Positions 44,199 through 59,976 of a DNA stretch of 63,578 nucleotides are shown here, piece by piece. How positions within the stretch are numbered: position 1 is the first letter of the stretch; every line of letters begins with the position of its first letter. Where the stretch lies: NCBI GenBank assembly GCA_019894975.1, contig JAGXNO010000018.1, positions 1 through 63,578 on the forward strand. The letters run 5' to 3'. The stretch is from Promethearchaeota archaeon (GTDB lineage Archaea; Asgardarchaeota; Lokiarchaeia; Sigyniarchaeales; SOKP01). The notes under the pieces are model-generated. The model did not search any database and was not told the origin of the DNA. It was given only the letters and a program-made list of their open reading frames with translations. The translations under genes were made by a program, and so were the position numbers.

Positions 44199-45428
44199 CT
44201 AAGACATAGATTCTAATAACAATTCTACTAGATCCACCATTTTCATACGTGAACCAGATGAATCTATCGCGTCTTTTAGGTTCCTCCAACAGAATGGACA
44301 AGTACTTACCAAATACTCAGCACCTGTTTCTTCCGCTTCTTTAAGTCTGTTTTCAGCCATCTCCATGGATAATTCTGGGAATCCCTTTCTTACACCAGCT
44401 CCAGCACCACAACACATTGCACCAGCTCTATTAGTTTTCATCTCAGTTAAGTTAGAAATTCTCTTTAATACGTCTCGCGGTTCTTCATATAAACCCATAT
44501 GACGTCCGATATGGCAGGGATCATGGTATGTGGTTTTAATATCTAACTTCTTTAGATTTACATCTCTTTCCGCAATTATGTTCTTCAAAAATTCAATTGA
44601 ATGGAGTATTTCAATTTCATTTAACTTGTCTCCATAATCTTTCTTAAAAGTTCTATAACATCCTGCACAACTTGTAACAATCTTTTTTATTCCTCTGTCT
44701 GTAAAAAACTTAACGTTTTCTTCTAAGATTTTTTCAAAAGATCTCCTATCTCCGGTTCGTATGGCAACACTACCGCAACATACTTCTTTTTCTCCAAAAA
44801 CCGAAAAGTCAATTCCTAATTTATTAAATATTTTTGCGGTGGCAATCGCAACACGTTGGATCTGAGGTGTTAATGCTGATGTACATCCGACAAAATAAAG
44901 GGTTTCAGCATCATCTTTGCTAGCATCTTTAATTTTAAAATCTAATTCTTCAGTCCAATTAATTTTTTCTTTATTATCCCGCTCATAAGGATTTAATAAG
45001 TCCACCATCGCTTTATTCATAGGAACGTGAGATTCAATTGCAAATCCCGCTTCAACTAAATCAGCTCTCAGAGCTTCATATACATTAACGTGATCCATAA
45101 TATTATGCAAAGGAAAATCAAAATTTTCACTCTGAGAATTAAAACAAACTTCTTCACAGAGACCGCAGAGGGTACACTGAAAAATGACATCACTGATATC
45201 TTGACTTAATGGTAAATGTCCCCAGAGAAGTCCCTTCATTATTACATTTTTACCTCGAGCAATAAAAGGTTCAAATTTTGGTACCGACTCTGTTCTATAT
45301 ACGGGGCAACTGTCAAATATTCCTTTTGAAGGCCAATTGGCAGTTCTACATTGCCCACATTGAGCACATGCTAAAGCAGCATCTTCTAATTTCTTTAGAT
45401 TTTTTAACGGTTCTTTTATCTCTATCAT
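44199..45428 (-). CDS. Fe-S oxidoreductase with two CCG domains (HdrD/GlcF/GlpC-like) 1
   Basis: CAQCGQC and CTLCGLC..VC; two CCG domains (GC..CCG..CAGC; DPCH..CCG..CPFC). Start set at ATG 45428 after GGTGATAATC. Confidence 0.9.
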   Translation of the reverse strand: MIEIKEPLKNLKKLEDAALACAQCGQCRTANWPSKGIFDSCPVYRTESVPKFEPFIARGKNVIMKGLLWGHLPLSQDISDVIFQCTLCGLCEEVCFNSQSENFDFPLHNIMDHVNVYEALRADLVEAGFAIESHVPMNKAMVDLLNPYERDNKEKINWTEELDFKIKDASKDDAETLYFVGCTSALTPQIQRVAIATAKIFNKLGIDFSVFGEKEVCCGSVAIRTGDRRSFEKILEENVKFFTDRGIKKIVTSCAGCYRTFKKDYGDKLNEIEILHSIEFLKNIIAERDVNLKKLDIKTTYHDPCHIGRHMGLYEEPRDVLKRISNLTEMKTNRAGAMCCGAGAGVRKGFPELSMEMAENRLKEAEETGAEYLVSTCPFCWRNLKDAIDSSGSRMKMVDLVELLLESMS

Positions 45429-45440
45429 GATTATCACCTT

Positions 45441-46949
45441 TTAATAATTCTCAGTTAAATAGAATTTTCCTGGACTCAATATCCTATTAGGGTCGAGAGC
45501 CTTCTTTATGGTGATCATAAAATTGTAATATTCTTCTGTTAAAGCCCCAGAATCAACTAAAGCTCTTCCAATAATTTCACCCATCCAGTAGTGTACTCCA
45601 CCTAATTCTTTTATCTGAGTTATTATGAGATCTTTCCACAGTTCTTCCTGTGTTTCTCTGTGCTCTATAGTACTTATTACACCACCCCCACCTGCAACAT
45701 CAATGTAAGATGGATAGACGCCAAATGCGATATAACCTGCGCTACCACCAGGGCCAATTTCAGTCATTTTAGCAAAATTTCTTTTTGTCCAGTCATCATA
45801 TAATTTATGATATGCTGGTAAGAGATTGGTAGGAGATTTTAAGCACGTACTCATAGTGAATATGTAACCGCCACCCCAACTATTATTAGACCATTGCCAT
45901 TTTCCATCCTCTTCATAGAACCATTTCCCGACGTTCCCTTCCTCTACGGTATCCCCCAATCTTTCGAATTCAGCTTCTTCAGCAAATTTCTCGATTCTTT
46001 CTATATTATAATCTAATTGTCTTTGAGTATCGGCTACAGTAGTATAATATAAAACACCCCCTCTCACTTTCTTATTTACTAAACCCTTTGCGATATTTCT
46101 TGAGGTTAACCCACTCACAGTAGCGGGAGTATAATAAAAGAAATCGTGCAATTGTAATCTATGGTGTTGCCATTTCATCATTAAATCTGTCACACGCTCT
46201 ACGGGAGTTTGTTCTTTGGTTTTTTTAATTACATAAGTTGCATATCCCCTATATTCGGGAAGAGGAAATATATTTAATGAGGCTTTAGTTTTTACTCCAT
46301 GAATTCCTACATCACCTAAAAAGATACCTGAATAATCGGCCCCTAATCCAAATCTAGTAAAGGGTTTGTCTCGAAAAGAATTAGCCTTCGAACCAGTATA
46401 AATAATCTCTCCTGTAGGTAAAACGACTTCTAATCCTACACATTGTTCTGTTGCCGCTCCGTACATAGCAGCACCCCCTCCACCAACCGTGTTATTAGAT
46501 AAGCCGCCACCAATTGTTGCAGAAAATCCAGAAGCAGGACCAGTTGTTCCAGTATAATACCCAATTCCTACATTACTTAATTGTTCGCATATTTCACTCC
46601 AAGAAATTCCAACCTCAACAGTAACAATCCGATTTTTCTCATCAACATCTAGGATCTTATTCATACGTGTTACATCAAGAACAATTCCTCCATCTCCTAT
46701 CGGTTTTGCACCTCCAGTTAAATCTGCCCCATTTCCTCGGGGTATAACTTTAGTACCATATTTATTAGCCACTTTCAAAATTCCAGATATTTCCTCAGGC
46801 GTTCTTGGTTTCACAACAATATCTGGAATACCTTGTAGAGTAAAATCACAATTCATAGAATATGAATAACAAATTGGTTCTTTATCAGAAACAAATTTGG
46901 TTCCAACAATATTTTCTATTTCTTCGTATGCATTTTGAATTTCATTCAT
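45441..46949 (-). CDS. VAO/PCMH-type FAD-binding oxidoreductase (GlcD-like fold) 1
   Basis: PRGNGADLTGG, ATIGGG, GLEVVLPTGE and KKALDPNRILSPGK; HYWMG motif. Confidence 0.88.
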   Translation of the reverse strand: MNEIQNAYEEIENIVGTKFVSDKEPICYSYSMNCDFTLQGIPDIVVKPRTPEEISGILKVANKYGTKVIPRGNGADLTGGAKPIGDGGIVLDVTRMNKILDVDEKNRIVTVEVGISWSEICEQLSNVGIGYYTGTTGPASGFSATIGGGLSNNTVGGGGAAMYGAATEQCVGLEVVLPTGEIIYTGSKANSFRDKPFTRFGLGADYSGIFLGDVGIHGVKTKASLNIFPLPEYRGYATYVIKKTKEQTPVERVTDLMMKWQHHRLQLHDFFYYTPATVSGLTSRNIAKGLVNKKVRGGVLYYTTVADTQRQLDYNIERIEKFAEEAEFERLGDTVEEGNVGKWFYEEDGKWQWSNNSWGGGYIFTMSTCLKSPTNLLPAYHKLYDDWTKRNFAKMTEIGPGGSAGYIAFGVYPSYIDVAGGGGVISTIEHRETQEELWKDLIITQIKELGGVHYWMGEIIGRALVDSGALTEEYYNFMITIKKALDPNRILSPGKFYLTENY

Positions 46950-47148
46950 GATTTATCAATTGATTTTCTAATTTTATATACTTAATTTTAAAACTTGAAT
47001 AATATCAAATGAAGCAAACTGAGTATAAAAAATTTTCTCGAAAGGGAAATAGTCTTGGAAGCTTAGATTAAAGATAAAAATTTAAAAATAATCTCAATCA
47101 ACTATAATTAAATCCTAAAAAATAAAAGATACAAAAAGAGTGGTAAAA

Positions 47149-47580
47149 ATGGTTGATGTAAACTTAGCCTTAGAAGTTAAAGAAATGACAGAAAAAGGTA
47201 CCATGAAAGATGATCCTAAGAATATCCTTAAACTTATGGAGCTCATGAAACAAGTTTCCGGTGAAGATGAAGATTTAAAAGAAGAGCTAGAGGATATGGA
47301 TACAATTACTGGTCAAATGGTCGTTACTGATAAAGATTTCAAGTATTGGTTTAGTGCTGGAGATGGAGCTTTCGATTATGCCGAAGGAGAAAATGATGAT
47401 CCCTCTTTCACCATGAAAGCTAATTGGGAAACAATGGCGGGTATGATGTCAGGTGAAGTTGATGGTACTGCCGCATACATGTCTGGTGACTTGGTCATCG
47501 AAGGTAATCTCCAAGATGTAATGACATATACAGAAGTTATGCGATTAGCTGTTGAAGCTATGCAGAAACTTGGTCAATAA
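47149..47580 (+). CDS. SCP2 sterol/lipid-binding domain protein 1
   Basis: GE.DDPSFTM..., SGEVDGTAAYMSGDLVIEGN (SCP2 signature). Start set at ATG 47149. Confidence 0.88.
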   Translation: MVDVNLALEVKEMTEKGTMKDDPKNILKLMELMKQVSGEDEDLKEELEDMDTITGQMVVTDKDFKYWFSAGDGAFDYAEGENDDPSFTMKANWETMAGMMSGEVDGTAAYMSGDLVIEGNLQDVMTYTEVMRLAVEAMQKLGQ

Positions 47581-47655
47581 TAGTCAGACAATTATTCGGG
47601 CTTTAAAATATTTTTAATATCTTTTTTTTTGCTATTTTTTAAATTAATAACGATT

Positions 47656-47672
47656 ATCAATAATATTGCATT
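47656..47672 (+). promoter_or_regulatory. Conserved 17-bp upstream element ATCA(A/T)TAATATTGCATT, copy before SCP2-2
   Basis: 16/17 identical to 48195-48211 upstream of thiolase B. Confidence 0.5.
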
Positions 47673-47723
47673 TTAATCTACAATATTTAACAAAAATGGT
47701 TCAAATATATGAGTTGAAGGAAA

Positions 47724-48146
47724 ATGGTTGACATGAAATTAGCAAAGGAAGTAAGAAAAATGCAGGAAAAAAGTAAATTGAAAGAAGATCCAAACAATTT
47801 TCTTAAATTGTTGGAACTCACTAAACAGATTTCGATGGAAGATGAGGATCTCAAGGAAGCATTAGAAATAGAGAAAATAGTTGGACAGGTAACCATTACT
47901 GATAGAAACTCTTCTTTATGGTTCAGTGCTGGTGACGGTACTTTTGACTATGGGGAAGGTGAAACAGATGATCCTAGCTATGTAATGAAAGCTACTTGGG
48001 AAATTTTGGGAAGAATATTGAGTGGGGAGAGTGATGGTGTTGAAGAATACATGTCTGGAGCTCTGATTATTGAAGGAAACATCGATGAAGCAACCAGATA
48101 TGGAGAAGTTACACGTGCAACTATAGAAGCTATGCAAAGACTATAA
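47724..48146 (+). CDS. SCP2 sterol/lipid-binding domain protein 2
   Basis: Tandem paralog: SGESDGVEEYMSGALIIEGN. Confidence 0.88.
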   Translation: MVDMKLAKEVRKMQEKSKLKEDPNNFLKLLELTKQISMEDEDLKEALEIEKIVGQVTITDRNSSLWFSAGDGTFDYGEGETDDPSYVMKATWEILGRILSGESDGVEEYMSGALIIEGNIDEATRYGEVTRATIEAMQRL

Positions 48147-48194
48147 TTCTTTTTTTTAACATCTTTTTATTTAAAAACGAAACTGATAATTAAA

Positions 48195-48211
48195 ATCATT
48201 AATATTGCATT
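48195..48211 (+). promoter_or_regulatory. Conserved 17-bp upstream element, copy before thiolase B
   Basis: ATCATTAATATTGCATT; matches 47656-47672. Confidence 0.5.
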
Positions 48212-48238
48212 ACTATCTTTTATTTAATAGTAGATAAG

Positions 48239-49492
48239 GTGATAATCATAAGCGATAAAGTTTATGTGTATAGTGTTGGAATGACTAAATTTGGCAAATT
48301 TCTTGATAAAGGCATTAAAGATTTAACAAGGGAAGCGCTTAAATCAGTCCAAGAGGATAATGAATTTGATTTAAATAATATCGAAGCTGCCTGGTTTTCT
48401 AATACAGGTTGGGGAATGACCGATTTTCAGCATAGTATACGTGGTCAAGTAGCACTTACACCGAATGGTGTTGATAAAGTGCCTATAACAAATGTTGAAA
48501 ATGCATGCGCTAGTGGGAGTACTGCATTTAATGGGGCATGGACTGCGATAAAAGCTGGAGTATTTGACTGTGCTTTAGCTATAGGTACTGAAAAAGTATA
48601 TCAAGAAGATCGGGCTAAAATGATGGATGGTTTTATAACCTATACAGATGTCGAACAAACGAGGGCTCTAATGGCACAAATGCAAAAAGCGGCTAAGGAA
48701 AGAGCAGAAAAAGCAGCAAGTCAAAACGGTGGTGAAAAGAAGGGAAAGAAAGGAGGTCATTCGGTCTTCATGGATTTCTATGCAGCAGGAGCACGTGGTC
48801 ATATGAAAGAATATGGAACGACACAACGACACCTTGCAGAAATCGCAGCAAAGAACCATAATAATTCTACAATGAATCCACTTGCTCAATATACTTTTCC
48901 TATGACTGTGGATCAGGTTATGGAAGATTATGAAGTTGCTTATCCATTAACTAGGGCAATGTGCGCCCCAGTTGGAGATGGATCTGCTGCTGCGGTACTT
49001 TGTTCTGAAAAATTCTTAAAAGAACACCCTAATGACAAAGCAATCTTAGTAAGAGCCTCTATTCTACGATCTGGCTCCTGGAAAAAGGATAACGTTTCCC
49101 AACGATCTTCTACAGCTGCTTATAAAATGGCGGGACTCAGTCCAAAAGATATAAATGTAGCTGAAGTTCATGATGCTACAGCTTATGGAGAACTTGAACA
49201 GATTGAACAGATGGGTTTTTGTGGATTAGGACAAGGAGGAGTTTTAACAGAGAGCGGGGAAACCCAGATTGGAGGTAAAATCGCTGTGAACCCAAGTGGG
49301 GGATTATTATCTCGAGGACACCCTCTAGGGGCATCTGGTTTAGCACAAATCTATGAACTTGTAACTCAATTACGGGGAGACGCTGGAAAAAGACAAGTTG
49401 ATAAGCATCAATATGCTCTAGCTGAAAATGGTGGTGGAACCATAGGTTCTGGGCCAGCTGCTATGTGTGTACATATATTAGAAGCGATTTAG
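48239..49492 (+). CDS. SCPx-type thiolase (thiolase B)
   Basis: ENACASG, EVHDA, NPSGG..GHPLGASG and ENGGG. True start may be ATA 48248. Confidence 0.9.
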   Translation: MIIISDKVYVYSVGMTKFGKFLDKGIKDLTREALKSVQEDNEFDLNNIEAAWFSNTGWGMTDFQHSIRGQVALTPNGVDKVPITNVENACASGSTAFNGAWTAIKAGVFDCALAIGTEKVYQEDRAKMMDGFITYTDVEQTRALMAQMQKAAKERAEKAASQNGGEKKGKKGGHSVFMDFYAAGARGHMKEYGTTQRHLAEIAAKNHNNSTMNPLAQYTFPMTVDQVMEDYEVAYPLTRAMCAPVGDGSAAAVLCSEKFLKEHPNDKAILVRASILRSGSWKKDNVSQRSSTAAYKMAGLSPKDINVAEVHDATAYGELEQIEQMGFCGLGQGGVLTESGETQIGGKIAVNPSGGLLSRGHPLGASGLAQIYELVTQLRGDAGKRQVDKHQYALAENGGGTIGSGPAAMCVHILEAI

Positions 49493-49622
49493 TTTTTTTA
49501 AATATATCTTTTTTTATTCCTAAATTTTATTTTTTAGTCTATATTACAAAATTTAACTATAATAGAGTTGATTAGACTCAGTAATTAGTTTGAATGGGGA
49601 TAGTTTTTATTCTGTGAATATT

Positions 49623-50603
49623 ATGAAAGGAGATAATACTAAACCGATTCCAATAATATATGACACCGATATGGAATTGGATTGTGATGATGCGGGTGCT
49701 CTTGCAGTGCTTCATGCCTTAATGGATTTTGATGAAGCTGAAATCTTAGGAGTTATAGTTGATGTGCCGTCTGAGGCTTCAGCAGGGTGTGTGAGCATAA
49801 TTAATAACTATTATAATCGTCCTGAAATTCCAGTCGGAATATTGGAAATTTCAGAATCCGATAAAGAAAAAAAATATCAAATGTATAGAGCGGTTAAAAA
49901 GCAAATTGGAAAAACTAGAGATTATTACCCAAATAAGATTGTAGAACGTTTTACTTCAGACAATATAAAAAACCAAAAGATTTGGAATTCCACTACCTTA
50001 TATCGACATATATTATCAAATTCAGAAGATCAATCAGTTGTTATTGTAGCAGTCGGATTGCTAACAGCATTGAAAGCGCTTTTGGATTCACCACCAGATG
50101 ATTTATCAACGCTTAGTGGGATGGAACTTGTGAAACTAAAAGTAAAGAAACTCGTTACAATGGGCATTGGCACATTTCCGAGTGCTCAAGAAGAATTTAA
50201 TTGGTTAATGGACTGGGAAAGCGCACGATTCGTCATTAAACACTGGCCTACTGATCTTGTAGTACAATCTAATGGTACTGAGTTCTTAACGGGGAATAAA
50301 TTATCTATTAGAACACCAGAATCAAATCCAGTTCGAAAAATTTACGAAACCTATCTAAAGAGGTCTAGAAAAGGGAATTACAGTTGGGATCTTATAGCTG
50401 CTTTCTATGGCGTAAAAGGATCTGAACCATATCTTGAGGAGAAAAAAGGCTATCAGATAATCCTTGAACCAGAATTAGGAAAAAATCACTGGATTCCTGT
50501 TGAAAATCGTGAAAATAATCACTCTTTTTTAACTTTAAATCCACCAATAATAAAACTAAAAAAAGTTTTAGAAGATCTGCTAACAAAACTTCCAAAGAAA
50601 TAA
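49623..50603 (+). CDS. Nucleoside hydrolase family protein
   Basis: IIYDTDMELDCDDAGAL (DxDxxxDD), VG.LT, EFN and SWD. Start set at ATG 49623. Confidence 0.85.
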   Translation: MKGDNTKPIPIIYDTDMELDCDDAGALAVLHALMDFDEAEILGVIVDVPSEASAGCVSIINNYYNRPEIPVGILEISESDKEKKYQMYRAVKKQIGKTRDYYPNKIVERFTSDNIKNQKIWNSTTLYRHILSNSEDQSVVIVAVGLLTALKALLDSPPDDLSTLSGMELVKLKVKKLVTMGIGTFPSAQEEFNWLMDWESARFVIKHWPTDLVVQSNGTEFLTGNKLSIRTPESNPVRKIYETYLKRSRKGNYSWDLIAAFYGVKGSEPYLEEKKGYQIILEPELGKNHWIPVENRENNHSFLTLNPPIIKLKKVLEDLLTKLPKK

Positions 50604-50744
50604 AAGGATTTTTAAAATCTACTGATGATCAGGGTTTCTTTGTGTAAATTTCGGTACAATGAAAAATATTATAATTGTGAAAATACAAAAATAAATGATG
50701 AGTCTATCTTTAAAAAACAAATCTTCTAGATTAACATTAGTGAA

Positions 50745-51773
50745 ATGGTGATGGAACAAATAATCTCTCGATGTGGAAACATCTGTTCTGAATGTCCCTG
50801 GTCTACTTTCATGCGGAAAAAAATCGCTAAAGAAGATTGGGAAGAGTATTCTAAACAGATTAAAATTTATACTGGATTCAAACCAGTTAAATATGAGTGG
50901 GAGGGTTGTGTTGGTTGTTTTACGCCAAATAATGAGTTACCAAGTCATCCGTTTTTTAATTTCTTGAAAAAATGTCGTACAAGAAAATGTGGAGAGCAGA
51001 ATGAGATTCCAAATTGTGCTTATTGTAGGCGATTCCCGTGTGCAAACACAGTAGCGAGGAATAATATAAATAGGGAAAAAATTTCAGAAAAATTAGGTAA
51101 GGTGGTTAGCGATGACGAGTATGAACGATATATTAAAATGTTTGATGCAATAGAAAATCTTAATGAAATTCGGAGCGGATTAAAGGATTCTCAAATTAAA
51201 AATCCAAAACCCGTAGTTCATCAACCTGAAATCTCTAAGTTAACAAGCGAATTTAAGAATGAGAATTTCAAGTTTGTTTATGAAAAACTACTTGAAATTG
51301 CTAATTCTAATTTGAGAATTAAAGGCATTGATACTGTTGCGGGTCTTGAATTGCATAAGATTAGAGAAGAGTTATTATGGAGGTTTCTTTGGATTTTGGT
51401 ATTATTCGGAGAAATTGATGGAAATGAATTAAGAATAGATAGTGGTACCCTCTATGACAATAGAAAACCTATATCACTTCCCTCTAATGAAGAAGATTGG
51501 AGATTATACTTCGATATTTTGTCAGAATTTGGAATCTCTGCAGAATTAGAGATATTAACTGATAATCTATACACTCCAGGAGGCTATATGAGGGCTAAAT
51601 TACCCAAATCTAATGATTCAGCATATATCATCAAAATGAAAGTGAGCTCTGATCTTCAAAAATTCCCCTTCTTTAAAGTGTTGAATGAAATACTTTCTAT
51701 GTTGCAGAAAAAGACTGGAAAACGGGCATTTTCAAATTTTAAAAAATTAAATTTTAATCCACTTCTGGATTAA
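50745..51773 (+). CDS. DUF3795-type Cys-rich protein with C-terminal extension
   Basis: SRCGNICSECP, CVGC, CRTRKC and NCAYCRRFPC. Confidence 0.75.
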   Translation: MVMEQIISRCGNICSECPWSTFMRKKIAKEDWEEYSKQIKIYTGFKPVKYEWEGCVGCFTPNNELPSHPFFNFLKKCRTRKCGEQNEIPNCAYCRRFPCANTVARNNINREKISEKLGKVVSDDEYERYIKMFDAIENLNEIRSGLKDSQIKNPKPVVHQPEISKLTSEFKNENFKFVYEKLLEIANSNLRIKGIDTVAGLELHKIREELLWRFLWILVLFGEIDGNELRIDSGTLYDNRKPISLPSNEEDWRLYFDILSEFGISAELEILTDNLYTPGGYMRAKLPKSNDSAYIIKMKVSSDLQKFPFFKVLNEILSMLQKKTGKRAFSNFKKLNFNPLLD

Positions 51774-51832
51774 ACTCTTTTTATAATACTTTATAAAAAT
51801 AAAAAATTATAGAATAGACTTTTAGAATAGTT

Positions 51833-53377
51833 CTAATCTTCTACGAGATGTTGTGTATAATCGTGGTCATAAGAATAAAGATGGAACTTATTCGGGCTCA
51901 GAAGATAATTGGGATCGACAGTTTTCTTCATATCTTTAAAGAATTGCATGAATTCAGGAGTGTAAGCACCTGCTTCGACGAGTGACTGACTAATTGATTC
52001 GCCAAGCCAGTAGTGAGCACCTCCATACCGTACCTGATGTCTTATTTTTTTATGCCAGATATTCATTGTAGTTTCGCGATGTTCATCTGTATTATCTCCA
52101 CCGAGTCCACCTACTATCACACAATTTCCATTAGGTAGGAACATCAAAAATGAAGCGAACACAGGGTATGGAGGATTCCCTGGTGGAAATTCCTTCGAAT
52201 TGCTTATATTAAATTGTACACCCTTTTGAACACTTTCATTTAGTCGAGAAATAGCAACTTTATGACAAGTAGTACAGGAACTCTTAGGAGGTGCCATGGA
52301 AATGTATTTTTGAAAGAAATTGAATTCTTCTTTTAAGTTAAACTTCCAATCTTCTGATAATCCCATGTCTAAATCAATTTCTTGCCACTCAAAAGGTCTA
52401 GTAACCTCATCCTTTAACATTATTTCATCAACCTTCTCGAGATACACATCCAGAATTCTTTCATCTGTAGCATCAAGAGTGACTGAAACGACTGGACCAG
52501 TTAATTTTGGTCTTTTACTCGGTTTATTAACAACCTGACCATATAACAATTGAGTTAAGATGAATGGGAATACCATCAAATCATTAAGCCCATCACCTAC
52601 TTCTTTCCGTAGTTTATGACCAAATTCAAACACTTTATTATAATCATCCTTTAAAAGCATATAATACCTACGCGCTTTATAGGGAGGATCTGGAAATAAG
52701 CGTAAGAAAGCTTTGCATTTTATACCCATGGTCCCCACATCTCCCATGAAGAGCCCTGTGAAGTCAGGTGCAACACCGTATCTGCAGAAAGGCGTGGCAT
52801 ATTGGTTTGCTGCTGATCCAGTTCTTATAATCGTTCCTTCTGGATTTGGGAGGACCACTTCAACCCCAAGACAGATATCTGGAGTTAGTCCATATTTTGT
52901 AGAACTAAATCCTACAGTAGCATTAGAAAGCCCTCCACCAATAGTTGCAGAATACCCACTACCCGGGCCTAGAATTCCTGTCGTCATCCCCTTTTTCTGT
53001 AGTTCTGAAAGCATGGATCCCCAAGTAATTCCACATCCTACAACGCAGTAGTAATCGTCTATATTAATTTCATGAATTTGATTCATTCGTGTAAGGTCTA
53101 TAAGAATCCCTCCTTCTGTAACTGAACCCCCGACTAAGTCAGCTCCACCGCCTCGTGGCACCATATGAATTTTGTATTTGTTTGCAATCTTTACTATTTC
53201 AGATACTTCCTCTGTGGTTTCTGGCTTTACGATTATATCCGCCCATCGATCAGGGAACGCAGGGTCTACATTTCTGGAATAAGCTGCTTTCATGAAATCT
53301 TTATCCGATATAAAGTCTGATCCAAGAACATCTTCTATTTCTTTATACGCATTTTTAACTTTGCTAATTATTAACAC
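51833..53377 (-). CDS. VAO/PCMH-type FAD-binding oxidoreductase 2
   Basis: PRGGGADLVGG, ATIGGG, GDVGTMG, HYWLG and DPNYLLSPNK. True start may be ATT 53368. Confidence 0.88.
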   Translation of the reverse strand: MLIISKVKNAYKEIEDVLGSDFISDKDFMKAAYSRNVDPAFPDRWADIIVKPETTEEVSEIVKIANKYKIHMVPRGGGADLVGGSVTEGGILIDLTRMNQIHEINIDDYYCVVGCGITWGSMLSELQKKGMTTGILGPGSGYSATIGGGLSNATVGFSSTKYGLTPDICLGVEVVLPNPEGTIIRTGSAANQYATPFCRYGVAPDFTGLFMGDVGTMGIKCKAFLRLFPDPPYKARRYYMLLKDDYNKVFEFGHKLRKEVGDGLNDLMVFPFILTQLLYGQVVNKPSKRPKLTGPVVSVTLDATDERILDVYLEKVDEIMLKDEVTRPFEWQEIDLDMGLSEDWKFNLKEEFNFFQKYISMAPPKSSCTTCHKVAISRLNESVQKGVQFNISNSKEFPPGNPPYPVFASFLMFLPNGNCVIVGGLGGDNTDEHRETTMNIWHKKIRHQVRYGGAHYWLGESISQSLVEAGAYTPEFMQFFKDMKKTVDPNYLLSPNKFHLYSYDHDYTQHLVED

Positions 53378-53423
53378 CCTATTTTCAAAAAAATATAATA
53401 ATTAGAATATAGACCTAATAACC

Positions 53424-53439
53424 TAATAAAAGTTTCTTA
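53424..53439 (-). promoter_or_regulatory. Putative BRE-TATA element TAAGAAACTTTTATTA upstream of FAD oxidoreductase 2
   Basis: A near-identical TAAGAAACTTTATTA lies at 54992-55006 upstream of paralog 3, at a similar distance from the start. Confidence 0.55.
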
Positions 53440-53524
53440 CTTATCACTAAATTAATGGAATATAGTTTGAAAACGGTTAAGTAGTAGTTGTATGGTTTCT
53501 GTAGAAGAGATTTTTTGAGATAAG

Positions 53525-53550
53525 TATATAAATGAAAATTTCATATATAT
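53525..53550 (+). promoter_or_regulatory. TATA box and inverted repeat (putative toxin-antitoxin operator)
   Basis: TATATAAA at 53525-53532 abuts the palindrome ATGAAA-A-TTTCAT (53532-53544), just before the antitoxin gene. Confidence 0.5.
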
Positions 53551-53554
53551 CATA

Positions 53555-53827
53555 ATGGGTAAATTTATGGGAATGGGAAAAGAAATGGGAAAGATTGAAA
53601 TTGATGATAGAGGTCGGTTAACATTACCATCTAAAATAAGAGATTCTTTAAATATAAAGCCAGGAGATAAGCTGACTATTAAAATAAATCAAGACAATAA
53701 GATAACTCTTCAGAAAAATCCTTCGAAAATAGAAATATTTGAAAATCTAGTTGGCTGTATCAAAACACCCTCTGAAGAAAAAGCAACTCCGGAGTCGATT
53801 AAAGAAATATGGAAAATGCAGCAATAA
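53555..53827 (+). CDS. vapB: AbrB/MazE/SpoVT-family antitoxin
   Basis: IDDRGRLTLPSKIRDSLNIKPGDKL signature; overlaps a PIN gene. Several alternative ATGs. Confidence 0.88.
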   Translation: MGKFMGMGKEMGKIEIDDRGRLTLPSKIRDSLNIKPGDKLTIKINQDNKITLQKNPSKIEIFENLVGCIKTPSEEKATPESIKEIWKMQQ

Positions 53828-54231
53828 TCTTTATTGATTCAAATTATTGGATTTACCTTTTCGACGAAACTACAGCAGAACATACTTATGTTAAAAATCA
53901 TTTTGAAAAAATCTATGATCAATGCCAAATTGCTATTAATATCCCTGTAATGATCGAAGTTATGCATTACATTGTAAAAAGGCTAGGAGCAAATCTTGCT
54001 AAACCTAAATGGGATCTATTTTCTTCAATGAATTTCATATATGACGATTTAACTTTTCAAGATTTAGACCTTGTTTTTAATGAATTATCTAATTTTACAC
54101 ATACTGGAATAGGGGCTAGAGATGCAACCATATTAGCCTCAATGAAGAAATTGTCAGTTCAAAAAATATGTACACATGATAAAAGTTTCACAAAAGTATC
54201 CAATATTGAAGTTATTGACCCAATCCCATAA
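53809..54231 (+). CDS. vapC: PIN-domain toxin
   Basis: IFIDSN, IEV, RDATILA and THDKSF acidic tetrad. True start may be ATA 53824. Confidence 0.9.
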   Translation: MENAAIIFIDSNYWIYLFDETTAEHTYVKNHFEKIYDQCQIAINIPVMIEVMHYIVKRLGANLAKPKWDLFSSMNFIYDDLTFQDLDLVFNELSNFTHTGIGARDATILASMKKLSVQKICTHDKSFTKVSNIEVIDPIP

Positions 54232-54295
54232 TTTAAATATTAACTTATTAATGAAAACTTACAAATTTAAATTAATTCCTAATTTTTTGAATGTA

Positions 54296-54940
54296 ATGAC
54301 TGATTTTAATGTAGAATTTGAAGAAAATCTTAAACCTACTTTTTTTATGGATTGGGAACATCCATCAATCTTACAAAAAGCCAAGGAACTAACAGAAGGC
54401 ATAGAAGATGACATTGATAAGGCAATTAATTTATTTTACTTTGTCCGGGACGGTATAAGATATTCAGTTAAAGATGCTCGCAAATCTTATGATAAGGAAG
54501 AGTGGAAATCAAGTTTAACCTTAAAAAAAGGATATGCATTTTGCATCCCAAAAGCGATTTTGTTAGCTTCGTTAGCCCGAGCTGTTGGCATACCCTCAAG
54601 ACTTCATTATAATGATATTGTAAACCATATGACAAGTGATAGACTCAAAAAAGATATGGGTAGCAGTCTTTTCATATTTCATGGATTTGTCGAACTATTT
54701 CTAAATGGAAAATGGGTAGAAGCAAATTGTGCATTCGATAAAGAGCTATGTATAAGGAAAAATTATCCTTGGGTTGATTTTGACGGAGTTAAAGATGGAC
54801 TTTTTGCCAGTACGAATAAAGATGGTGAACCATTTGTAGACTATGTGAAAGATCGGGGAGTTTACAATGATGCGCCTCATCAAGAAGTATTAGAGACTTG
54901 GGCTAAAGAGTATCCCGACCGTTATGAAAAACCGAAATAA
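54296..54940 (+). CDS. Transglutaminase-like cysteine protease family protein
   Basis: FYFVRDGIRY, FCIPKAILLASLARAVGIPSR and FHG..E...GKWV. Start set at ATG 54296. Confidence 0.88.
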   Translation: MTDFNVEFEENLKPTFFMDWEHPSILQKAKELTEGIEDDIDKAINLFYFVRDGIRYSVKDARKSYDKEEWKSSLTLKKGYAFCIPKAILLASLARAVGIPSRLHYNDIVNHMTSDRLKKDMGSSLFIFHGFVELFLNGKWVEANCAFDKELCIRKNYPWVDFDGVKDGLFASTNKDGEPFVDYVKDRGVYNDAPHQEVLETWAKEYPDRYEKPK

Positions 54941-54991
54941 ATTGATTCTGGAACCTCTGATTATAAAATTGATGATATTGTTTCTTTTGAA

Positions 54992-55006
54992 TAAGAAACT
55001 TTATTA
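54992..55006 (+). promoter_or_regulatory. Putative BRE-TATA element upstream of FAD oxidoreductase 3
   Basis: TAAGAAACTTTATTA, shared with 53424-53439 on the minus strand. Confidence 0.55.
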
Positions 55007-55057
55007 ATTTCTCAAATGTAATTCTTCTTAATTAATGGTATTATAGAGTGATAGAAT

Positions 55058-56590
55058 ATGTCAAAAGTCAAAAGTGCATTTAAGGAAATTGAGCATATCG
55101 TTGGAGACGATTTTATAACTGATAAAGATTTCATGAAGGCAGCCTATTCAAGGAATGTAGATCCAGCATTTCCAGATAGGTGGGCTGATATGATTGTACG
55201 ACCTGAAACAACTGAAGAAGTCTCTGAAATAGTCAAGATTGCAAATAAATACAAAATTCATATGGTTCCACGCGGAGGGGGTGCTGACCTAGTTGGGGGT
55301 TCAGTGTCAGAAGGGGGTATCCTTATTGATCTTACTAGAATGAATAAAATAATAGAAATTAATGAAGATGATTACTATTACATTGTTGAGTGTGGTGTTA
55401 CGTGGGGCGCTTTATTATCAGAATTACATCCAAGAGGTTTAACTTCTGGTGTTACAGGGCCAGGAAGTGGATTTGCAGCAACTATTGGAGGGGGCCTTTC
55501 AAATAGCACAGCTGGTGGAGGTTCTACAAAATATGGATTAGTCCCTGACGTGTGTTTGGGTGTAGAGGCAGTACTCCCAAATCCTCAAGGAACGATAGTG
55601 AGAACTGGATCAGCTGCAAATCAATACGCTACACCTTTCTGTAGGTATGGTGTTGCCCCTGATTTCACTGGACTATTCATGGGTGATGTGGGGACCATGG
55701 GCATAAAGACCAAAGCATTTATGAGATTATTTCCAGATCCTCCTTATAAAGCTTCTCGAATGTATGTATTTGCTAAGAACGATTATAATAAGGTATTTGA
55801 AAAAGCTCATAAATTGCGAAAAGAAGTTGGAGATGGATTGCTTGGCTTAAGTGTTCTACCACTTGAAATTACCATGATGATGGCTGCTCGAATGGCCACA
55901 GGCCCAAAGAGACCACGAATAAGAGGACCATTGTGTGCAATAAATTTAGAAGCTACTGATCAACGAATTTTAGATGTATACATTGAAAAAGTAGATGAAA
56001 TTATGTTAAAAGATGAGGATACTCGAGCTTTTAATTTTCAGGAAATCGATCCAAATATGGAAAGACCAGACACATGGCAGTATAACTTAGAAGCGAGTTT
56101 CAACTATTTTCATAATATGATTTCAGTAGCACCTCCTAAGGTCACCTGTACCACATGTCATAAAGTACCAATGTCAGGTTTACCAGAGTTATCTAAAAAA
56201 GCCCAACAGTTTGATATTTTAAATAATAAAAACTACCCTCCCGGAACTATGGCTATTTGGGCTGGTGTAATAGCTTTTATGCCTAACGGTAATTGTATCT
56301 TTGTTGGAGGTTTTAATGCTGATAATGTAGAAGAAAAACGTCAGCTTTCAATGGATTTATGGCACAAGAAGATAAGGTATCAAGTTCGATATGGAGGTGT
56401 TCACTACTGGCTTGGTGAGTCTATCTCACAATCTATTACGGAAGCAGGAGCTTTTACAGAGGACTTCGAGCAATTCTTCAGAGATATAAAGAAAACAGTT
56501 GATCCAAATTACTTGCTTTCACCTAATAAGTTCCATCTTCACACCTATGAAAGTCGATTCTCCGATCATCTTGTATCTGATGAAGAATAA
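55058..56590 (+). CDS. VAO/PCMH-type FAD-binding oxidoreductase 3
   Basis: Same motifs as paralog 2; canonical ATG start (MSKVK). Confidence 0.88.
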   Translation: MSKVKSAFKEIEHIVGDDFITDKDFMKAAYSRNVDPAFPDRWADMIVRPETTEEVSEIVKIANKYKIHMVPRGGGADLVGGSVSEGGILIDLTRMNKIIEINEDDYYYIVECGVTWGALLSELHPRGLTSGVTGPGSGFAATIGGGLSNSTAGGGSTKYGLVPDVCLGVEAVLPNPQGTIVRTGSAANQYATPFCRYGVAPDFTGLFMGDVGTMGIKTKAFMRLFPDPPYKASRMYVFAKNDYNKVFEKAHKLRKEVGDGLLGLSVLPLEITMMMAARMATGPKRPRIRGPLCAINLEATDQRILDVYIEKVDEIMLKDEDTRAFNFQEIDPNMERPDTWQYNLEASFNYFHNMISVAPPKVTCTTCHKVPMSGLPELSKKAQQFDILNNKNYPPGTMAIWAGVIAFMPNGNCIFVGGFNADNVEEKRQLSMDLWHKKIRYQVRYGGVHYWLGESISQSITEAGAFTEDFEQFFRDIKKTVDPNYLLSPNKFHLHTYESRFSDHLVSDEE

Positions 56591-56771
56591 TTTTTTTTTT
56601 CCTATTTCTTTTCTTATTGTATTCTTAAAATAAAACTTCTATTGAAATTAAGATAGATTAATTATTCTAAAGACAGTATAGCTAGTACGAGCTAACTATT
56701 TAAGGGCAACAATTAAATTAGATTCAACATTTAAAACAAATCAATTAACATTAACAAAAAAAGTGATTAAA

Positions 56772-58253
56772 ATTTCGAAAGTGAAAGAAGCATATAGTGA
56801 GATTGAAAGCGTTGTTGGGGAAGATTTTGTTTCTGATAAAGATTTCATGAAAGCTGCATACTCTAGAAATGTGGATCCTGCGTTTCCAGATAGATGGGCA
56901 GATATAATAGTAAAACCAGAGACTACTGAGGAAGTATCTGAGATTGTTAAAATCGCAAATAAATATAAATTGCGAATGGTTCCACGAGGTGGGGGTGCCG
57001 ATCTCGTTGGAGGAAGTGTTACAGAGGAAGGAATCTTAATTGATATGACTCGAATGAATAAGCTTGAAGAATTCAACAAAGATGATTACTACATTGTTGT
57101 TGGAGTCGGAATTACTTGGGGAGATTTACTTTCTCAATTAGTTCCCGAGGGATACACTACTGGTAATACGGGTCCTGGGAGTGGGTTCTCTGCTACTATT
57201 GGTGGGGGTCTATCAAATAGTACAGCTGGAGGAGGGTCAACTAAATATGGTCTTGTTCCGGATAACTGCCTTGGTGTTGAAGTCGTTCTTCCAAATCCAG
57301 AAGGGACAATTATTAAAACTGGTTCTGCTGCAAATAAATATGCCAAACCATTCTGCAGGTATGGTGTTTCACCTGATTTCACAGGTCTGTTCATGGGTGA
57401 TGTGGGGACCATGGGAATTAAATGCAAAGCCTCCTTACGAATATACCGTGAACACCCCTATAAAGCCAATCGAGTTTTCCTCCTTAAGGAGTATGATTAT
57501 AATAAAGTCTATTTGTTAGCTAGAAAAATTAGGTACGAAATCCCTGATGGGTTACTTGGTTTAAGCGCATTTCCGCCTTTTTACTTCGCCCAGTTTAAAA
57601 TTCCGAATGTTAAAGGTCCAGGAGTATCGGTTTCTCTAGAAGCTACGGAAATGGAGATTCTTGAGATGTACATTAAAAAACTTGAAGATATTATGAAAGA
57701 AGACACAGTTATGATGCCTGCCGCTCCTGGCGCTAACGCTAAACCTAATTTGAAAGCGGCTTTTCACTACTTTCAAGCAGGAATTTCCCCAGTCCCTGGG
57801 AGAATTGCTATGGCAACATGTCATAAAATCCCAATCTCAACTTTAGGTCATGTACATGATGAGAACGTTGATTGGAATAATAGGCATGCAAAAGATATAC
57901 CAGGATCAGTTATGCCAGGAGTTTTTGAGGCAACACAATACTTCTTACCTAACGGAAATATGGTTGTGTTAGGAGGTGTAGCAGGAGAAAATAAGGATGA
58001 AATGCGGGAGAGGAATATGAATCTCTGGCATTCAAAAATTCGAACGCAGGTACGATATGGTGGAGCACACTATTGGTTAGGGGAATCCATTTCACAATCA
58101 GTAGTTGAATCCGGCGCGTTTGAACCTGAATATGAACAATTCTTCAGGGATATGAAGAAAACAGTTGATCCTAATTATCTGCTTAGTCCCAATAAATTTC
58201 ATCTGCATACTTATGATTCTAAGTTTGCAGACCACTATGTAGAACCAGATTAA
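56772..58253 (+). CDS. VAO/PCMH-type FAD-binding oxidoreductase 4
   Basis: Same motifs. Start placed at ATT 56772 by alignment; alternative is GTG 56763. Confidence 0.88.
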   Translation: MSKVKEAYSEIESVVGEDFVSDKDFMKAAYSRNVDPAFPDRWADIIVKPETTEEVSEIVKIANKYKLRMVPRGGGADLVGGSVTEEGILIDMTRMNKLEEFNKDDYYIVVGVGITWGDLLSQLVPEGYTTGNTGPGSGFSATIGGGLSNSTAGGGSTKYGLVPDNCLGVEVVLPNPEGTIIKTGSAANKYAKPFCRYGVSPDFTGLFMGDVGTMGIKCKASLRIYREHPYKANRVFLLKEYDYNKVYLLARKIRYEIPDGLLGLSAFPPFYFAQFKIPNVKGPGVSVSLEATEMEILEMYIKKLEDIMKEDTVMMPAAPGANAKPNLKAAFHYFQAGISPVPGRIAMATCHKIPISTLGHVHDENVDWNNRHAKDIPGSVMPGVFEATQYFLPNGNMVVLGGVAGENKDEMRERNMNLWHSKIRTQVRYGGAHYWLGESISQSVVESGAFEPEYEQFFRDMKKTVDPNYLLSPNKFHLHTYDSKFADHYVEPD

Positions 58254-58440
58254 ACATACTTCCAAACTTCTATCTTTTCCTTTTATTTTTTAAGTGTCGT
58301 ATAAGTAATTCAATTAAGTACCTTAATTATTAGATATTCTATAATTCATGAAATAAAGAAATTGAATTAAGAATAACTATTAAATTAAATTCAACATTTA
58401 ACAAAAATCAGATATCATTTATAATAAAAAGTGATTAAAA

Positions 58441-59976
58441 ATTTCGAAAGTGAAAGAAGCATATAATGAGATTGAAAGTGTTGTTGGGGAAGATTATGTA
58501 ACCGATAAAGACTTCATGAAAGCGGCATATTCAAGAAATGTCGATCCTGCGTTTCCTGACCGTTGGGCTGACGTGATAGTGCGTCCTGAAACTACTGAAG
58601 AAGTATCTGAGATTGTGAAGATTGCCAATAAATACAAAATAAGAATGGTCCCACGAGGAGGGGGCGCTGATTTAGTAGGAGGAAGCGTAACCGAAGAGGG
58701 TATTCTTATAGATTTAACAAGAATGAATCAGGTTATTGAATTCAACAAAGATGACTATTATATCGTAGTTGGTTGTGGTATCACGTGGGGAGCATTAATC
58801 TCATACCTTCACCCTACAGGTTATAGTACAGGTGTTATTGGTCCTGGAAGTGGATTCGCCGCGACAATCGGGGGTGGTTTATCGAATAGTACAGCTGGAG
58901 GAGGTTCTACTAAATACGGTCTTGTTCCCGATATTTGTCTGGGGGTTGAGGTTGTACTACCAAACCCAGAAGGTACAATCATTAGAACTGGTTCCGCAGC
59001 AAACAAATATGCAAAGCCCTTCTGTAGATATGGTGTTTCACCTGACTTTACAGGTTTGTTTATGGGCGATGTAGGAACTATGGGAATTAAGACCAAAGCA
59101 TTCTTAAGAATATTCCCAGATCCTCCATATAAACAAGCACGCATGTATGTGGTTAATAAACCGGATTATAACAAGGTATTTGAGTTATCACATAAGATAC
59201 GGTTTGAAATAAATGAAGCTTTAAGAGATATTTCTGTTTTACCACCGATTTTAGTTCAAATGCAAGCACCACGATATGCAAAGCAAACAGGTCAAAAACT
59301 TACTGCTAAAGGTCCTTTAATGAATATTACAATAGAAGCTATGGAAGAAAGCACACTAAATTTAAAACTCGACAAGCTTGCCAAGATCATGGAAAATGAA
59401 GCAGAGCGAGTATCTGGTTCCTTAGTAAATCCTGAGTTTGATGATGAACCTAAATTTGGTTATGATCTCGAAGGTACTTTCCATTTTTTCCAGCAATCTA
59501 TTTCACCTACGCCTGCTCAAATTTCAATGGCAACTTGTCATAAAATTCCTATTTCTAATATGGGGCAAGTTTATGATAAAGTCGTTGATTTTAGCAAAAA
59601 ACATGCTGCTGAGATGGGTGCTGGTGCTATCTATCCTGGAATTTTTGCTTCAATGCTCTACTTTCTACCAAACGGTAATTTTGTAGTGTTAGGAGGTGTT
59701 GGGGGAAAGAATGTAGAGGGAGAACGAGAAAGGAATATGAAGAATTGGCACAGGAAGATACGACATCAAGTACGATACGGTGGAGCACATTACTGGCTTG
59801 GAGAGTCAATATCCCAATCAGTTACGGAAGCAGGAGCGTTTACTCCCGAATATGAACAATTTTTCAGAGATATGAAGAAGACAGTAGATCCCAATTACTT
59901 GCTATCTCCAAATAAGTTCCATTTGCACACGTATGATTCGAAATTTAAAGATTATTATGTAGAAGAGGAAGATTAG
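58441..59976 (+). CDS. VAO/PCMH-type FAD-binding oxidoreductase 5
   Basis: Same motifs. Start placed at ATT 58441 by alignment; alternative is GTG 58450. Confidence 0.88.
   Translation: MSKVKEAYNEIESVVGEDYVTDKDFMKAAYSRNVDPAFPDRWADVIVRPETTEEVSEIVKIANKYKIRMVPRGGGADLVGGSVTEEGILIDLTRMNQVIEFNKDDYYIVVGCGITWGALISYLHPTGYSTGVIGPGSGFAATIGGGLSNSTAGGGSTKYGLVPDICLGVEVVLPNPEGTIIRTGSAANKYAKPFCRYGVSPDFTGLFMGDVGTMGIKTKAFLRIFPDPPYKQARMYVVNKPDYNKVFELSHKIRFEINEALRDISVLPPILVQMQAPRYAKQTGQKLTAKGPLMNITIEAMEESTLNLKLDKLAKIMENEAERVSGSLVNPEFDDEPKFGYDLEGTFHFFQQSISPTPAQISMATCHKIPISNMGQVYDKVVDFSKKHAAEMGAGAIYPGIFASMLYFLPNGNFVVLGGVGGKNVEGERERNMKNWHRKIRHQVRYGGAHYWLGESISQSVTEAGAFTPEYEQFFRDMKKTVDPNYLLSPNKFHLHTYDSKFKDYYVEEED

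Follow-up and report, generated by a model that had tools for sequence, protein, structure and literature searches.

Comparative evidence for Shine–Dalgarno-led translation initiation at ATT, ATA and ATC codons in a Lokiarchaeia-type Asgard archaeon

The first 63,578 nucleotides of contig JAGXNO010000018.1 (assembly GCA_019894975.1), which as a whole are the window analysed here, carry a cluster of flavin adenine dinucleotide (FAD) oxidase paralogs, three of which have ATT at the codon where a fourth has its ATG start. The genome that holds the window, hereafter G000, belongs to an uncultured Promethearchaeia (Lokiarchaeia-type) Asgard archaeon and is a metagenome-assembled genome (MAG) of 3.93 Mb with 31.6% GC, 175 contigs and an estimated contamination of 8.6%. 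Comparative sequence analysis makes it highly likely that dozens of intact genes in G000, including these three FAD oxidase paralogs and the gene for initiation factor aIF1, start at ATT, ATA or ATC (collectively ATH; AUH in mRNA) behind a Shine–Dalgarno (SD) motif. The initial annotation of the window had proposed that the organism routinely initiates at ATT and ATA. This proposal is supported by a genome-wide SD-anchored tally, by Pfam domain starts and by the alignment of ortholog first-methionine codons, and it extends to ATC, which was absent from the earlier claim. Throughout, ATG, GTG and TTG are referred to as canonical starts.

The 3' end of the 16S rRNA in the G000 assembly is GGATCACCTCCT, and the full SD complement is therefore AGGAGGTGATCC. 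Ahead of open reading frames (ORFs) whose first canonical start is ATG, the most enriched 5-mers are AGTGA, GTGAA and GTGAT, located at −12 to −9, and the GTGA-to-ATG spacing, measured here and below from the A of GTGA to the start codon, peaks at 5–7 nt (39/46/38). A perfect 5-mer SD is found in only about a tenth of ORFs, in line with the low prevalence of SDs noted for a Lokiarchaeal genome (PMC7531240). The motif was also considered as a promoter element, a reading that was rejected because every 5-mer of the anti-SD complement gives signal at the aligned spacing.

The raw genome-wide triplet profile after every GGTGA, GGTG, GTGAT or GGAGG shows coding periodicity only (GGT-GAx codons) and no start signal, so the analysis was confined to the 5' ends of ORFs, for which G000 supplied 3,199 stop-to-stop ORFs, none overlapping and each 120 codons or longer. 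Specifically, for every [AG]GTGA we tallied the in-frame codon 5–7 nt further on, provided that the frame was open there and no canonical start came earlier. The canonical codons ATG, TTG and GTG occur there 90, 22 and 9 times, ATT, ATA and ATC 19, 15 and 11 times, and AAT, TTA, TAT and TTT 6, 4, 3 and 3 times, respectively. The next canonical start lies 24–243 nt downstream in 37 of the 45 ATH cases; for control codons of similar composition (AAA, AAT, TAT, TTA and TTT) it nearly always lies 3–6 nt further on, which indicates that those SDs serve the canonical start at a longer spacing. In a strict tally, restricted to codons that precede the first canonical start by 24 nt or more, 37 of 61 codons at spacing 5–7 are ATH (61%; ATT 16, ATA 11 and ATC 10), as compared with a background of 14.3% among all such upstream codons and 3–17% at four control spacings (binomial p = 9e-17). 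The count of codons downstream of the SD that the initial annotation had called for thus reveals an enrichment of ATT, ATA and ATC specifically at the SD spacing optimum.

When any perfect 5-mer of AGGAGGTGATCC is accepted as an SD, ATH occupies the aligned spacing in 71 of 188 cases versus 10–27 per control spacing, and the ATH cases at spacing 4–8 fall in 75 distinct ORFs. If the GTG embedded in the SD is ignored, the spacing profile of ATH (13/27/11 at 5/6/7 nt) is like that of ATG, other codons dip at 6 nt, and ATH accounts for about a fifth of [AG]GTGA-led starts. By a conservative count, some 60–75 genes, at least 2% of the ORFs of at least 120 codons, would carry an ATH start, with weaker SDs and short genes left uncounted. 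Additionally, in 137 ORFs the frame is open for 30 codons or more before the first canonical start; only 49 of these have a perfect-5-mer SD followed by ATH, and weaker SDs, other codons or frameshifts may account for the rest. CTG stands at the SD optimum, before any canonical start, in 3–6 cases, suggesting that other near-cognates are used at low frequency; the second-position variants AAG, ACG and AGG are nearly absent at SD spacing (ACG 2–3 times).

Whether ATH codons mark real N-termini was judged from protein domains. Twenty ORFs, each with an in-frame stop upstream of the ATH by construction, were translated from the ATH codon and scanned against Pfam, and in a dozen of them the domain begins a few residues past the ATH and contains the first canonical start. 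Counted from the ATH codon, such domains include Gtr1_RagA/Ras (residues 2–201; first canonical start TTG at codon 48), Ras (2–162; ATG at codon 41), Fer4 (3–24; GTG at codon 35), 3HCDH_N (9–183; ATG at codon 28), AFOR_N (7–205; ATG at codon 61), GFO_IDH_MocA (5–123; GTG at codon 10), ThiF (10–242; ATG at codon 46), Robl_LC7 (1–79; GTG at codon 37), Abhydrolase_1 (from residue 23; TTG at codon 43), CoA_binding_2 (from residue 27; GTG at codon 61) and Flavin_Reduct (from residue 16; TTG at codon 19). P-loop, Rossmann, 4Fe-4S, ThiF and aldehyde:ferredoxin oxidoreductase (AOR) domains are thus among those that a canonical start would truncate. With the frame closed by a stop ahead of the ATH and the domain already begun at the first canonical start, no canonical start can yield an intact protein. 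Genome-wide, indispensable N-terminal sequence without an upstream canonical start is found in at least 10 genes by Pfam, and in aIF1.

Two other ORFs with interrupted or unaccounted N-termini are recorded separately. In a DEAD-box helicase ORF (G000:C137, from index 12929, +), the Q-motif and its upstream Phe precede the first canonical ATG; no ATH lies at SD distance there, and GTGA directly abuts AAT-AAA-TTA-AAT-TTT. In an RNase HII ORF (G000:C94, from index 36889, −), the conserved GIDEAGR segment is cut off by an in-frame TAA or a change of frame, possibly through a frameshift, a sequencing error or pseudogene formation.

The single SUI1/aIF1 gene lies outside the window, at G000:C104:8819-9133 (+). 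Its start region reads ...GGTTGTGATAA-GAG-AGT-ATT-AAA-GAC-GAC-GAC-ATT-TGT-CCA-TTA-TGT..., with a TAA two codons ahead of the ATT, and the ATT lies 9 nt past a conserved SD-like GGTTGTGA. The first ATG, GTG or TTG is located near the C-terminus, beyond the zinc knuckle (ICPxC) and most of the SUI1 domain. Of 79 related species-level MAGs with an aIF1 identity of 78% or more, 76 have ATT as the first codon and 3 have ATC, and a canonical start upstream of the zinc knuckle occurs in none of the 79. Across the class, members of the same family from six genera carry ATT or ATC at this position, and other families carry TTG or ATA. A ThiF/MoeB-type gene, which has ATC in G000, is conserved in a similar manner: ATT, ATC or ATA follows (A/G)GTGA in 14/14 same-genus orthologs, the TGA of (A/G)GTGA being an in-frame stop, and ATG stands in place of the ATH codon both in ThiF orthologs from two other families and in paralogs within the genus.

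The same tally gives ATH in 7/15 cases on 400 kb of a complete same-genus genome. On 1.2 Mb of a one-contig sister-family genome (31% GC), which doubles as a negative control for the method, ATH is found in 5/37 cases versus 4/42, 4/41 and 7/41 at control spacings, that is, without enrichment. Set against SD-led canonical starts, ATH is favoured in G000 over the sister family with an odds ratio of 4.7 (Fisher p = 2e-4). The null result in this one sampled sister-family genome of equal GC indicates that the habit is lineage-specific and not general to AT-rich Asgard genomes.

In the window, Pfam assigns the genes concerned to Thiolase_N/C, FAD_binding_4 (five paralogs) and CCG+Fer4_8 (Table 1). 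All strings quoted in the initial annotation are present base for base at their coordinates; the distances from GTG to ATH are 9, 9 and 10 nt as it had claimed, and GTG 58431 is indeed out of frame for the ORF at 58441, with the TGA of its GTGA forming an in-frame stop. All four ATH sites of the window sit 5–6 nt past an SD. The 58441 paralog carries an extra A, a 1-nt indel relative to the 56763 copy, which shifts the GTG out of frame and brings the TGA of GTGA into frame. In the gene of the CCG/Fer4_8 protein, the GGTGATAATC that precedes ATG is identical to the stretch preceding the thiolase B ATA, and the ORF list, by its longest-ORF rule, places the start of this gene at the in-frame GTG 45437 inside the SD motif instead of at ATG 45428.

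Table 1. Genes and SD-like motifs of the window that bear on start-codon choice.
Feature	Position	Strand	Start codon and context
CCG/Fer4_8 protein gene	44199..45438	−	GGTGATAATC (45438-45429), then ATG 45428
SD GGTGA	48238..48242	+	5 nt to thiolase B ATA; its GTG 48239 in frame
Thiolase B	48248..49492	+	possible start ATA 48248 (ISDKVYVYSVG), alternative GTG 48239; GGTGA 48238-48242, TAATC, ATA 48248, AGC-GAT-AAA
FAD_binding_4 oxidase paralog 1	51833..53368	−	proposed start ATT 53368 (ISKVKNAYKEIE); GGGTGTTAATA-ATT-AGC-AAA-GTT
SD-like GGGTG	53375..53379	−	its GTG 53377 in frame, listed as start by ORF finders
SD-like GAGTGA	55046..55051	+	6 nt to paralog 3 ATG; GTG out of frame; TAG 55052-55054 in frame
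FAD_binding_4 oxidase paralog 3	55058..56590	+	canonical ATG (MSKVKSAF), reference for homologous ATT codons; GAGTGATAGAAT-ATG-TCA-AAA-GTC, in-frame TAG two codons ahead of ATG
SD-like AGTGA	56762..56766	+	5 nt to ATT; its GTG 56763 in frame, listed as start by ORF finders
FAD_binding_4 oxidase paralog	56772..58253	+	proposed start ATT 56772; AGTGATTAAA-ATT-TCG-AAA-GTG
SD-like AGTGA	58430..58434	+	6 nt before ATT (genome-wide optimum); complementary to 16S 3' end
FAD_binding_4 oxidase paralog	58441..59976	+	proposed start ATT 58441 (ISKVKEAY...), first canonical start GTG 58450; AGTGATTAAAA-ATT-TCG-AAA-GTG, in-frame stop TGA 58432-58434

The window genes were compared with homologs in three sister genomes, G002 (same genus), G009 and G011. 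Four FAD paralogs are syntenic in G002, where three paralogs have ATG at the codon homologous to ATT and the ortholog of 58441 has ATT itself; the FAD oxidase homologs of G011 and G009 have ATG at this codon. All compared homologs read (M/I)SKVK, and six of them carry ATG at the ATT position. Specifically, the syntenic G002 ortholog of 56772 has ATG-TCA-AAA-GTT at the ATT codon, and in that of 53368, GGTGAAATAA-ATG-TCC-AAG-GTT, a TAA lies in frame between the GTG and the ATG. Because of this TAA and the 1-nt indel that distinguishes the 56763 and 58431 copies, the stretch from GTG to ATT is best regarded as spacer and not as coding sequence. In the G002 ortholog of 58441 (88% identity), the ATT is kept and GTT stands in place of the downstream GTG, so a model restricted to canonical starts needs a different start in each species, whereas the ATT is common to both. 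For thiolase B, a G002 thiolase paralog has ATG aligned with the ATA. On these comparisons, a start at ATT 58441 is very probable, starts at ATT in the 56772 and 53368 paralogs are probable, and a start of thiolase B at ATA 48248, the weakest and an ambiguous case in the window, is only slightly favoured. The start state flips between FAD oxidase orthologs (ATT in G000, ATG in G002) but is fixed for ThiF and aIF1, which suggests that some ATH starts are selected and others are tolerated drift.

Several observations weigh against ATH initiation, and an alternative is that only canonical starts are used. In that case the in-frame SD-like GTG would begin three of the proteins (MIKISK, MLIISK and MIIISD), the 58441 paralog would begin at GTG 58450 (MKEAY) after its indel, and the alignment with ATG codons would be coincidental. 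The SD GTG is in frame at 3/5 sites (56763, 53377 and 48239) and could itself initiate; for each of these three genes taken singly, ATH is a candidate start beside the GTG. Initiation of the 58441 paralog at the GTG three codons downstream would cost no Pfam domain, as FAD_binding_4 begins only at residue 44. The G002 ortholog of thiolase B keeps the ATA behind AGTGATGATT, yet has an in-frame ATG two codons upstream of it, and the first position of the Thiolase_N profile corresponds to residue 5 counted from the ATA, which fits either start of thiolase B. AT-rich, TATA-like boxes occur near ATH starts, so that leaderless initiation at a canonical codon is possible for single genes. Finally, all support for ATH initiation is comparative.

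The ORFs whose apparent start is a GTG inside an SD bear directly on this alternative. The first canonical start is GTG in 320 ORFs, and in 131 of these it lies inside [AG]GTGA. At codon 4 of the 131 ORFs (spacing 5), ATG occurs 34 times and TTG 15 times, against shares of 2.8% and 0.9% expected from ATG-started genes, and codon 5 is ATG in 13. These counts bear out the earlier claim that gene callers place starts wrongly at the SD GTG, a claim that holds for at least half of the 131 ORFs. The same position is less favourable to ATH: ATT occurs 12 times (expected 4.8%, ~6), a modest enrichment, and ATA 6 times (expected 4.6%, ~6), no enrichment. Initiation at canonical codons alone nevertheless appears improbable. 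It requires an ad hoc change of start from one ortholog pair to the next, given the GTT in the G002 ortholog of 58441 and the TAA in that of 53368; GTG 58450 lies 15 nt past the SD, outside the 5–7 nt optimum; and no fewer than 49 of the 131 comparable ORFs demonstrably start elsewhere than at the SD GTG. Moreover, since at least 10 genes would lose essential N-terminal motifs from any canonical start, AUH initiation exists in this genome anyway.

The initiator tRNA bears on how AUH codons would be decoded. Located by its acceptor-stem pattern, an initiator tRNA-Met(CAU) gene lies outside the window at G000:C104:32242-32373 (−) and adopts a canonical fold once two introns are removed in silico. 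One of them interrupts the gene behind anticodon-loop position 37, the other in the variable/T-arm region. The folded tRNA has an A1:U72 pair and three G-C pairs in the anticodon stem. No tRNA-Met is present among the 16 tRNAs called by aragorn in G000, the 29 tRNAs found with Rfam include no obvious initiator, and the anticodon arm GGGCTCATAACCC, used as a pattern, has no match in five genomes because an intron interrupts the gene. The single initiator-type tRNA found thus has an ordinary CAU anticodon, within a recovered tRNA inventory that is incomplete and with modifications being invisible in DNA. A dedicated cognate route, in which another initiator-like tRNA, its anticodon modified or of Ile type, would deliver Ile, or Met by way of a special tRNA, as the first residue, would account for the roughly equal use of all three AUH codons, as if the whole AUH box were read, and the incomplete tRNA set (16 by aragorn, 29 by Rfam) leaves room for it. 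We consider such a route very unlikely, as the only initiator-type tRNA found carries CAU, the single tRNA-Ile(GAU) found has elongator features, and the 3–6 cases of CTG at SD spacing fit a general tolerance of near-cognates better. Aragorn also calls a tRNA-SeC(TCA) at G000:C44:65495-65582 (−), which hints at selenocysteine use.

Decay of ATG in pseudogenes or genes near loss, or sequencing and assembly errors, would require only the single step from ATG to ATA or ATT that AT-biased mutation favours, in a MAG of 175 contigs with 8.6% estimated contamination, but is scarcely credible as the source of the ATH starts, because the ORFs stay open for hundreds of codons and match Pfam profiles along their full length, genomes assembled independently of one another show the same ATH starts (ThiF 14/14, aIF1 79/79), ATC equals ATA in frequency although AT pressure works against it, second-position variants (AAG, ACG and AGG) are nearly absent, and the essential factor aIF1 is among the genes affected.

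For SD-led ATH initiation, we propose the following mechanism. The duplex between GGTGA(T) and the 16S 3' end would set the P site 5–7 nt downstream and thereby give positional specificity. The ordinary Met-tRNAi(CAU) would be accepted on AUG and, less efficiently, on AUU, AUA and AUC with a third-position mismatch, and likewise on UUG, GUG and CUG with a first-position mismatch. aIF1 would set the stringency of this selection and, in this lineage, would proofread comparatively loosely. We expect AUH starts to be weak and hence to give low or aIF1-dependent expression, and since aIF1 itself would be initiated at AUU, a shortage of aIF1 would lead to more aIF1 synthesis, a homeostatic loop like those of infC and eIF1. 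That the first residue is Met, that AUH is of weak efficiency and that aIF1 regulates itself are features that we infer. The suggestion of the initial annotation that an ATH start tunes the expression of paralogs is a possible one.

The initial annotation had also pointed to the fidelity residues of aIF1. An alignment of aIF1 from the ATH-using family against other families yields a sole family-specific column, column 87, the residue after the conserved GDHR, which is Phe or Leu in the ATH-using family and Lys, Arg, His, Gln or Ser in other families; a single column is too thin to name a determinant. The GDHR neighbourhood presumably aligns with the D83/Q84 Sui- positions of yeast eIF1, which we treat as a lead only. 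It is conceivable, if on present comparisons doubtful, that a whole family within the Promethearchaeia has evolved relaxed third-position discrimination at the start codon, with AUH as a conserved weak class of several per cent of genes that forms a translational regulon responsive to the level of AUU-initiated aIF1 and is possibly tied to the Phe or Leu after GDHR.

The window region 44199-59976 is also of note for its gene content, as five FAD_binding_4 (GlcD/D-lactate-dehydrogenase-like) paralogs are clustered there with a CCG+Fer4_8 (GlcF/HdrD-like) protein and thiolases, and this array is syntenic in the sister genome (G002:C8:38-55 kb).

Common gene finders accept ATG, GTG and TTG only, and in this clade such programs truncate or extend dozens of proteins per genome. 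The mis-annotated proteins include eukaryote-signature small GTPases (RagA/Arf-like), Roadblock proteins, ThiF-type E1-like enzymes and aIF1, and the misplaced starts distort comparative and structural work on Asgard proteins. This lineage stands near the eukaryotic stem, by our reading makes routine use of third-position near-cognates and has such a codon at the head of its eIF1 homolog, which makes the evolution of start stringency and of eIF1/aIF1 autoregulation directly testable.

NCBI translation table 11 formally allows ATT, ATC, ATA and CTG as initiators, and mitochondria use AUA and AUU starts. Mitochondria differ from the present case in that AUA is recoded to Met and C34 of tRNA-Met is modified, and no sign of either is seen here. 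Reviews give the archaeal start repertoire as AUG, GUG and UUG only (PMC4705826; PMC7531240). G000 conforms to this picture in that an SD of the GGTGAT type, which matches the 16S 3' end by complementarity, positions the start, and in using GUG and UUG too; it departs from it in that these reviews do not include third-position near-cognates as a routine class (PMC4705826; PMC7531240). The closest precedent is the 'rare ATT start codon' inferred for the tubulin AtubA in a Kariarchaeaceae Asgard MAG (PMC13394414). There, as here, an annotation-truncated Asgard gene is restored by an upstream ATT at a plausible ribosome-binding-site distance, backed by completeness of the fold; that case differs in concerning one gene in another Asgard lineage, in being called rare and in coming without a genome-wide or aIF1 analysis. 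A systematic description of AUH initiation in Asgard archaea was not found in the literature searched, where this single-gene remark was the only related statement (PMC13394414). Near-cognate SD-led initiation is a known kind of initiation, and its probable routine use in this lineage is infC-like in its logic.

As regards the proposed loop, aIF1 destabilises non-AUG complexes in other archaea (PMC6237735), and eukaryotic eIF1 is autoregulated through a poor initiation context, according to Ivanov et al. 2010 as cited in PMC6237735. As far as that citing account describes it, eIF1 resembles the present case in that a homologous factor of the SUI1 fold, which rejects weak starts, is itself translated from a weak start, and differs in that eukaryotes use AUG in a poor Kozak context together with scanning, whereas here AUU lies 9 nt past the SD-like GGTTGTGA. 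In E. coli, pcnB is an AUU-initiated gene besides infC. Bacterial infC, which encodes IF3, has an AUU start with translational autocontrol (PMC4705826), and the likeness to the present system is twofold: initiation at AUU is SD-led, and the gene of a fidelity factor itself carries a strongly conserved non-canonical start (here aIF1, ATT or ATC in 79/79). On the other hand, aIF1 is not homologous to IF3, and AUU is a rare exception in E. coli as against at least 60–75 putative AUH genes here. Autocontrol is known for infC, and by analogy with it we propose that the AUU start of aIF1 may serve the same purpose in this lineage.

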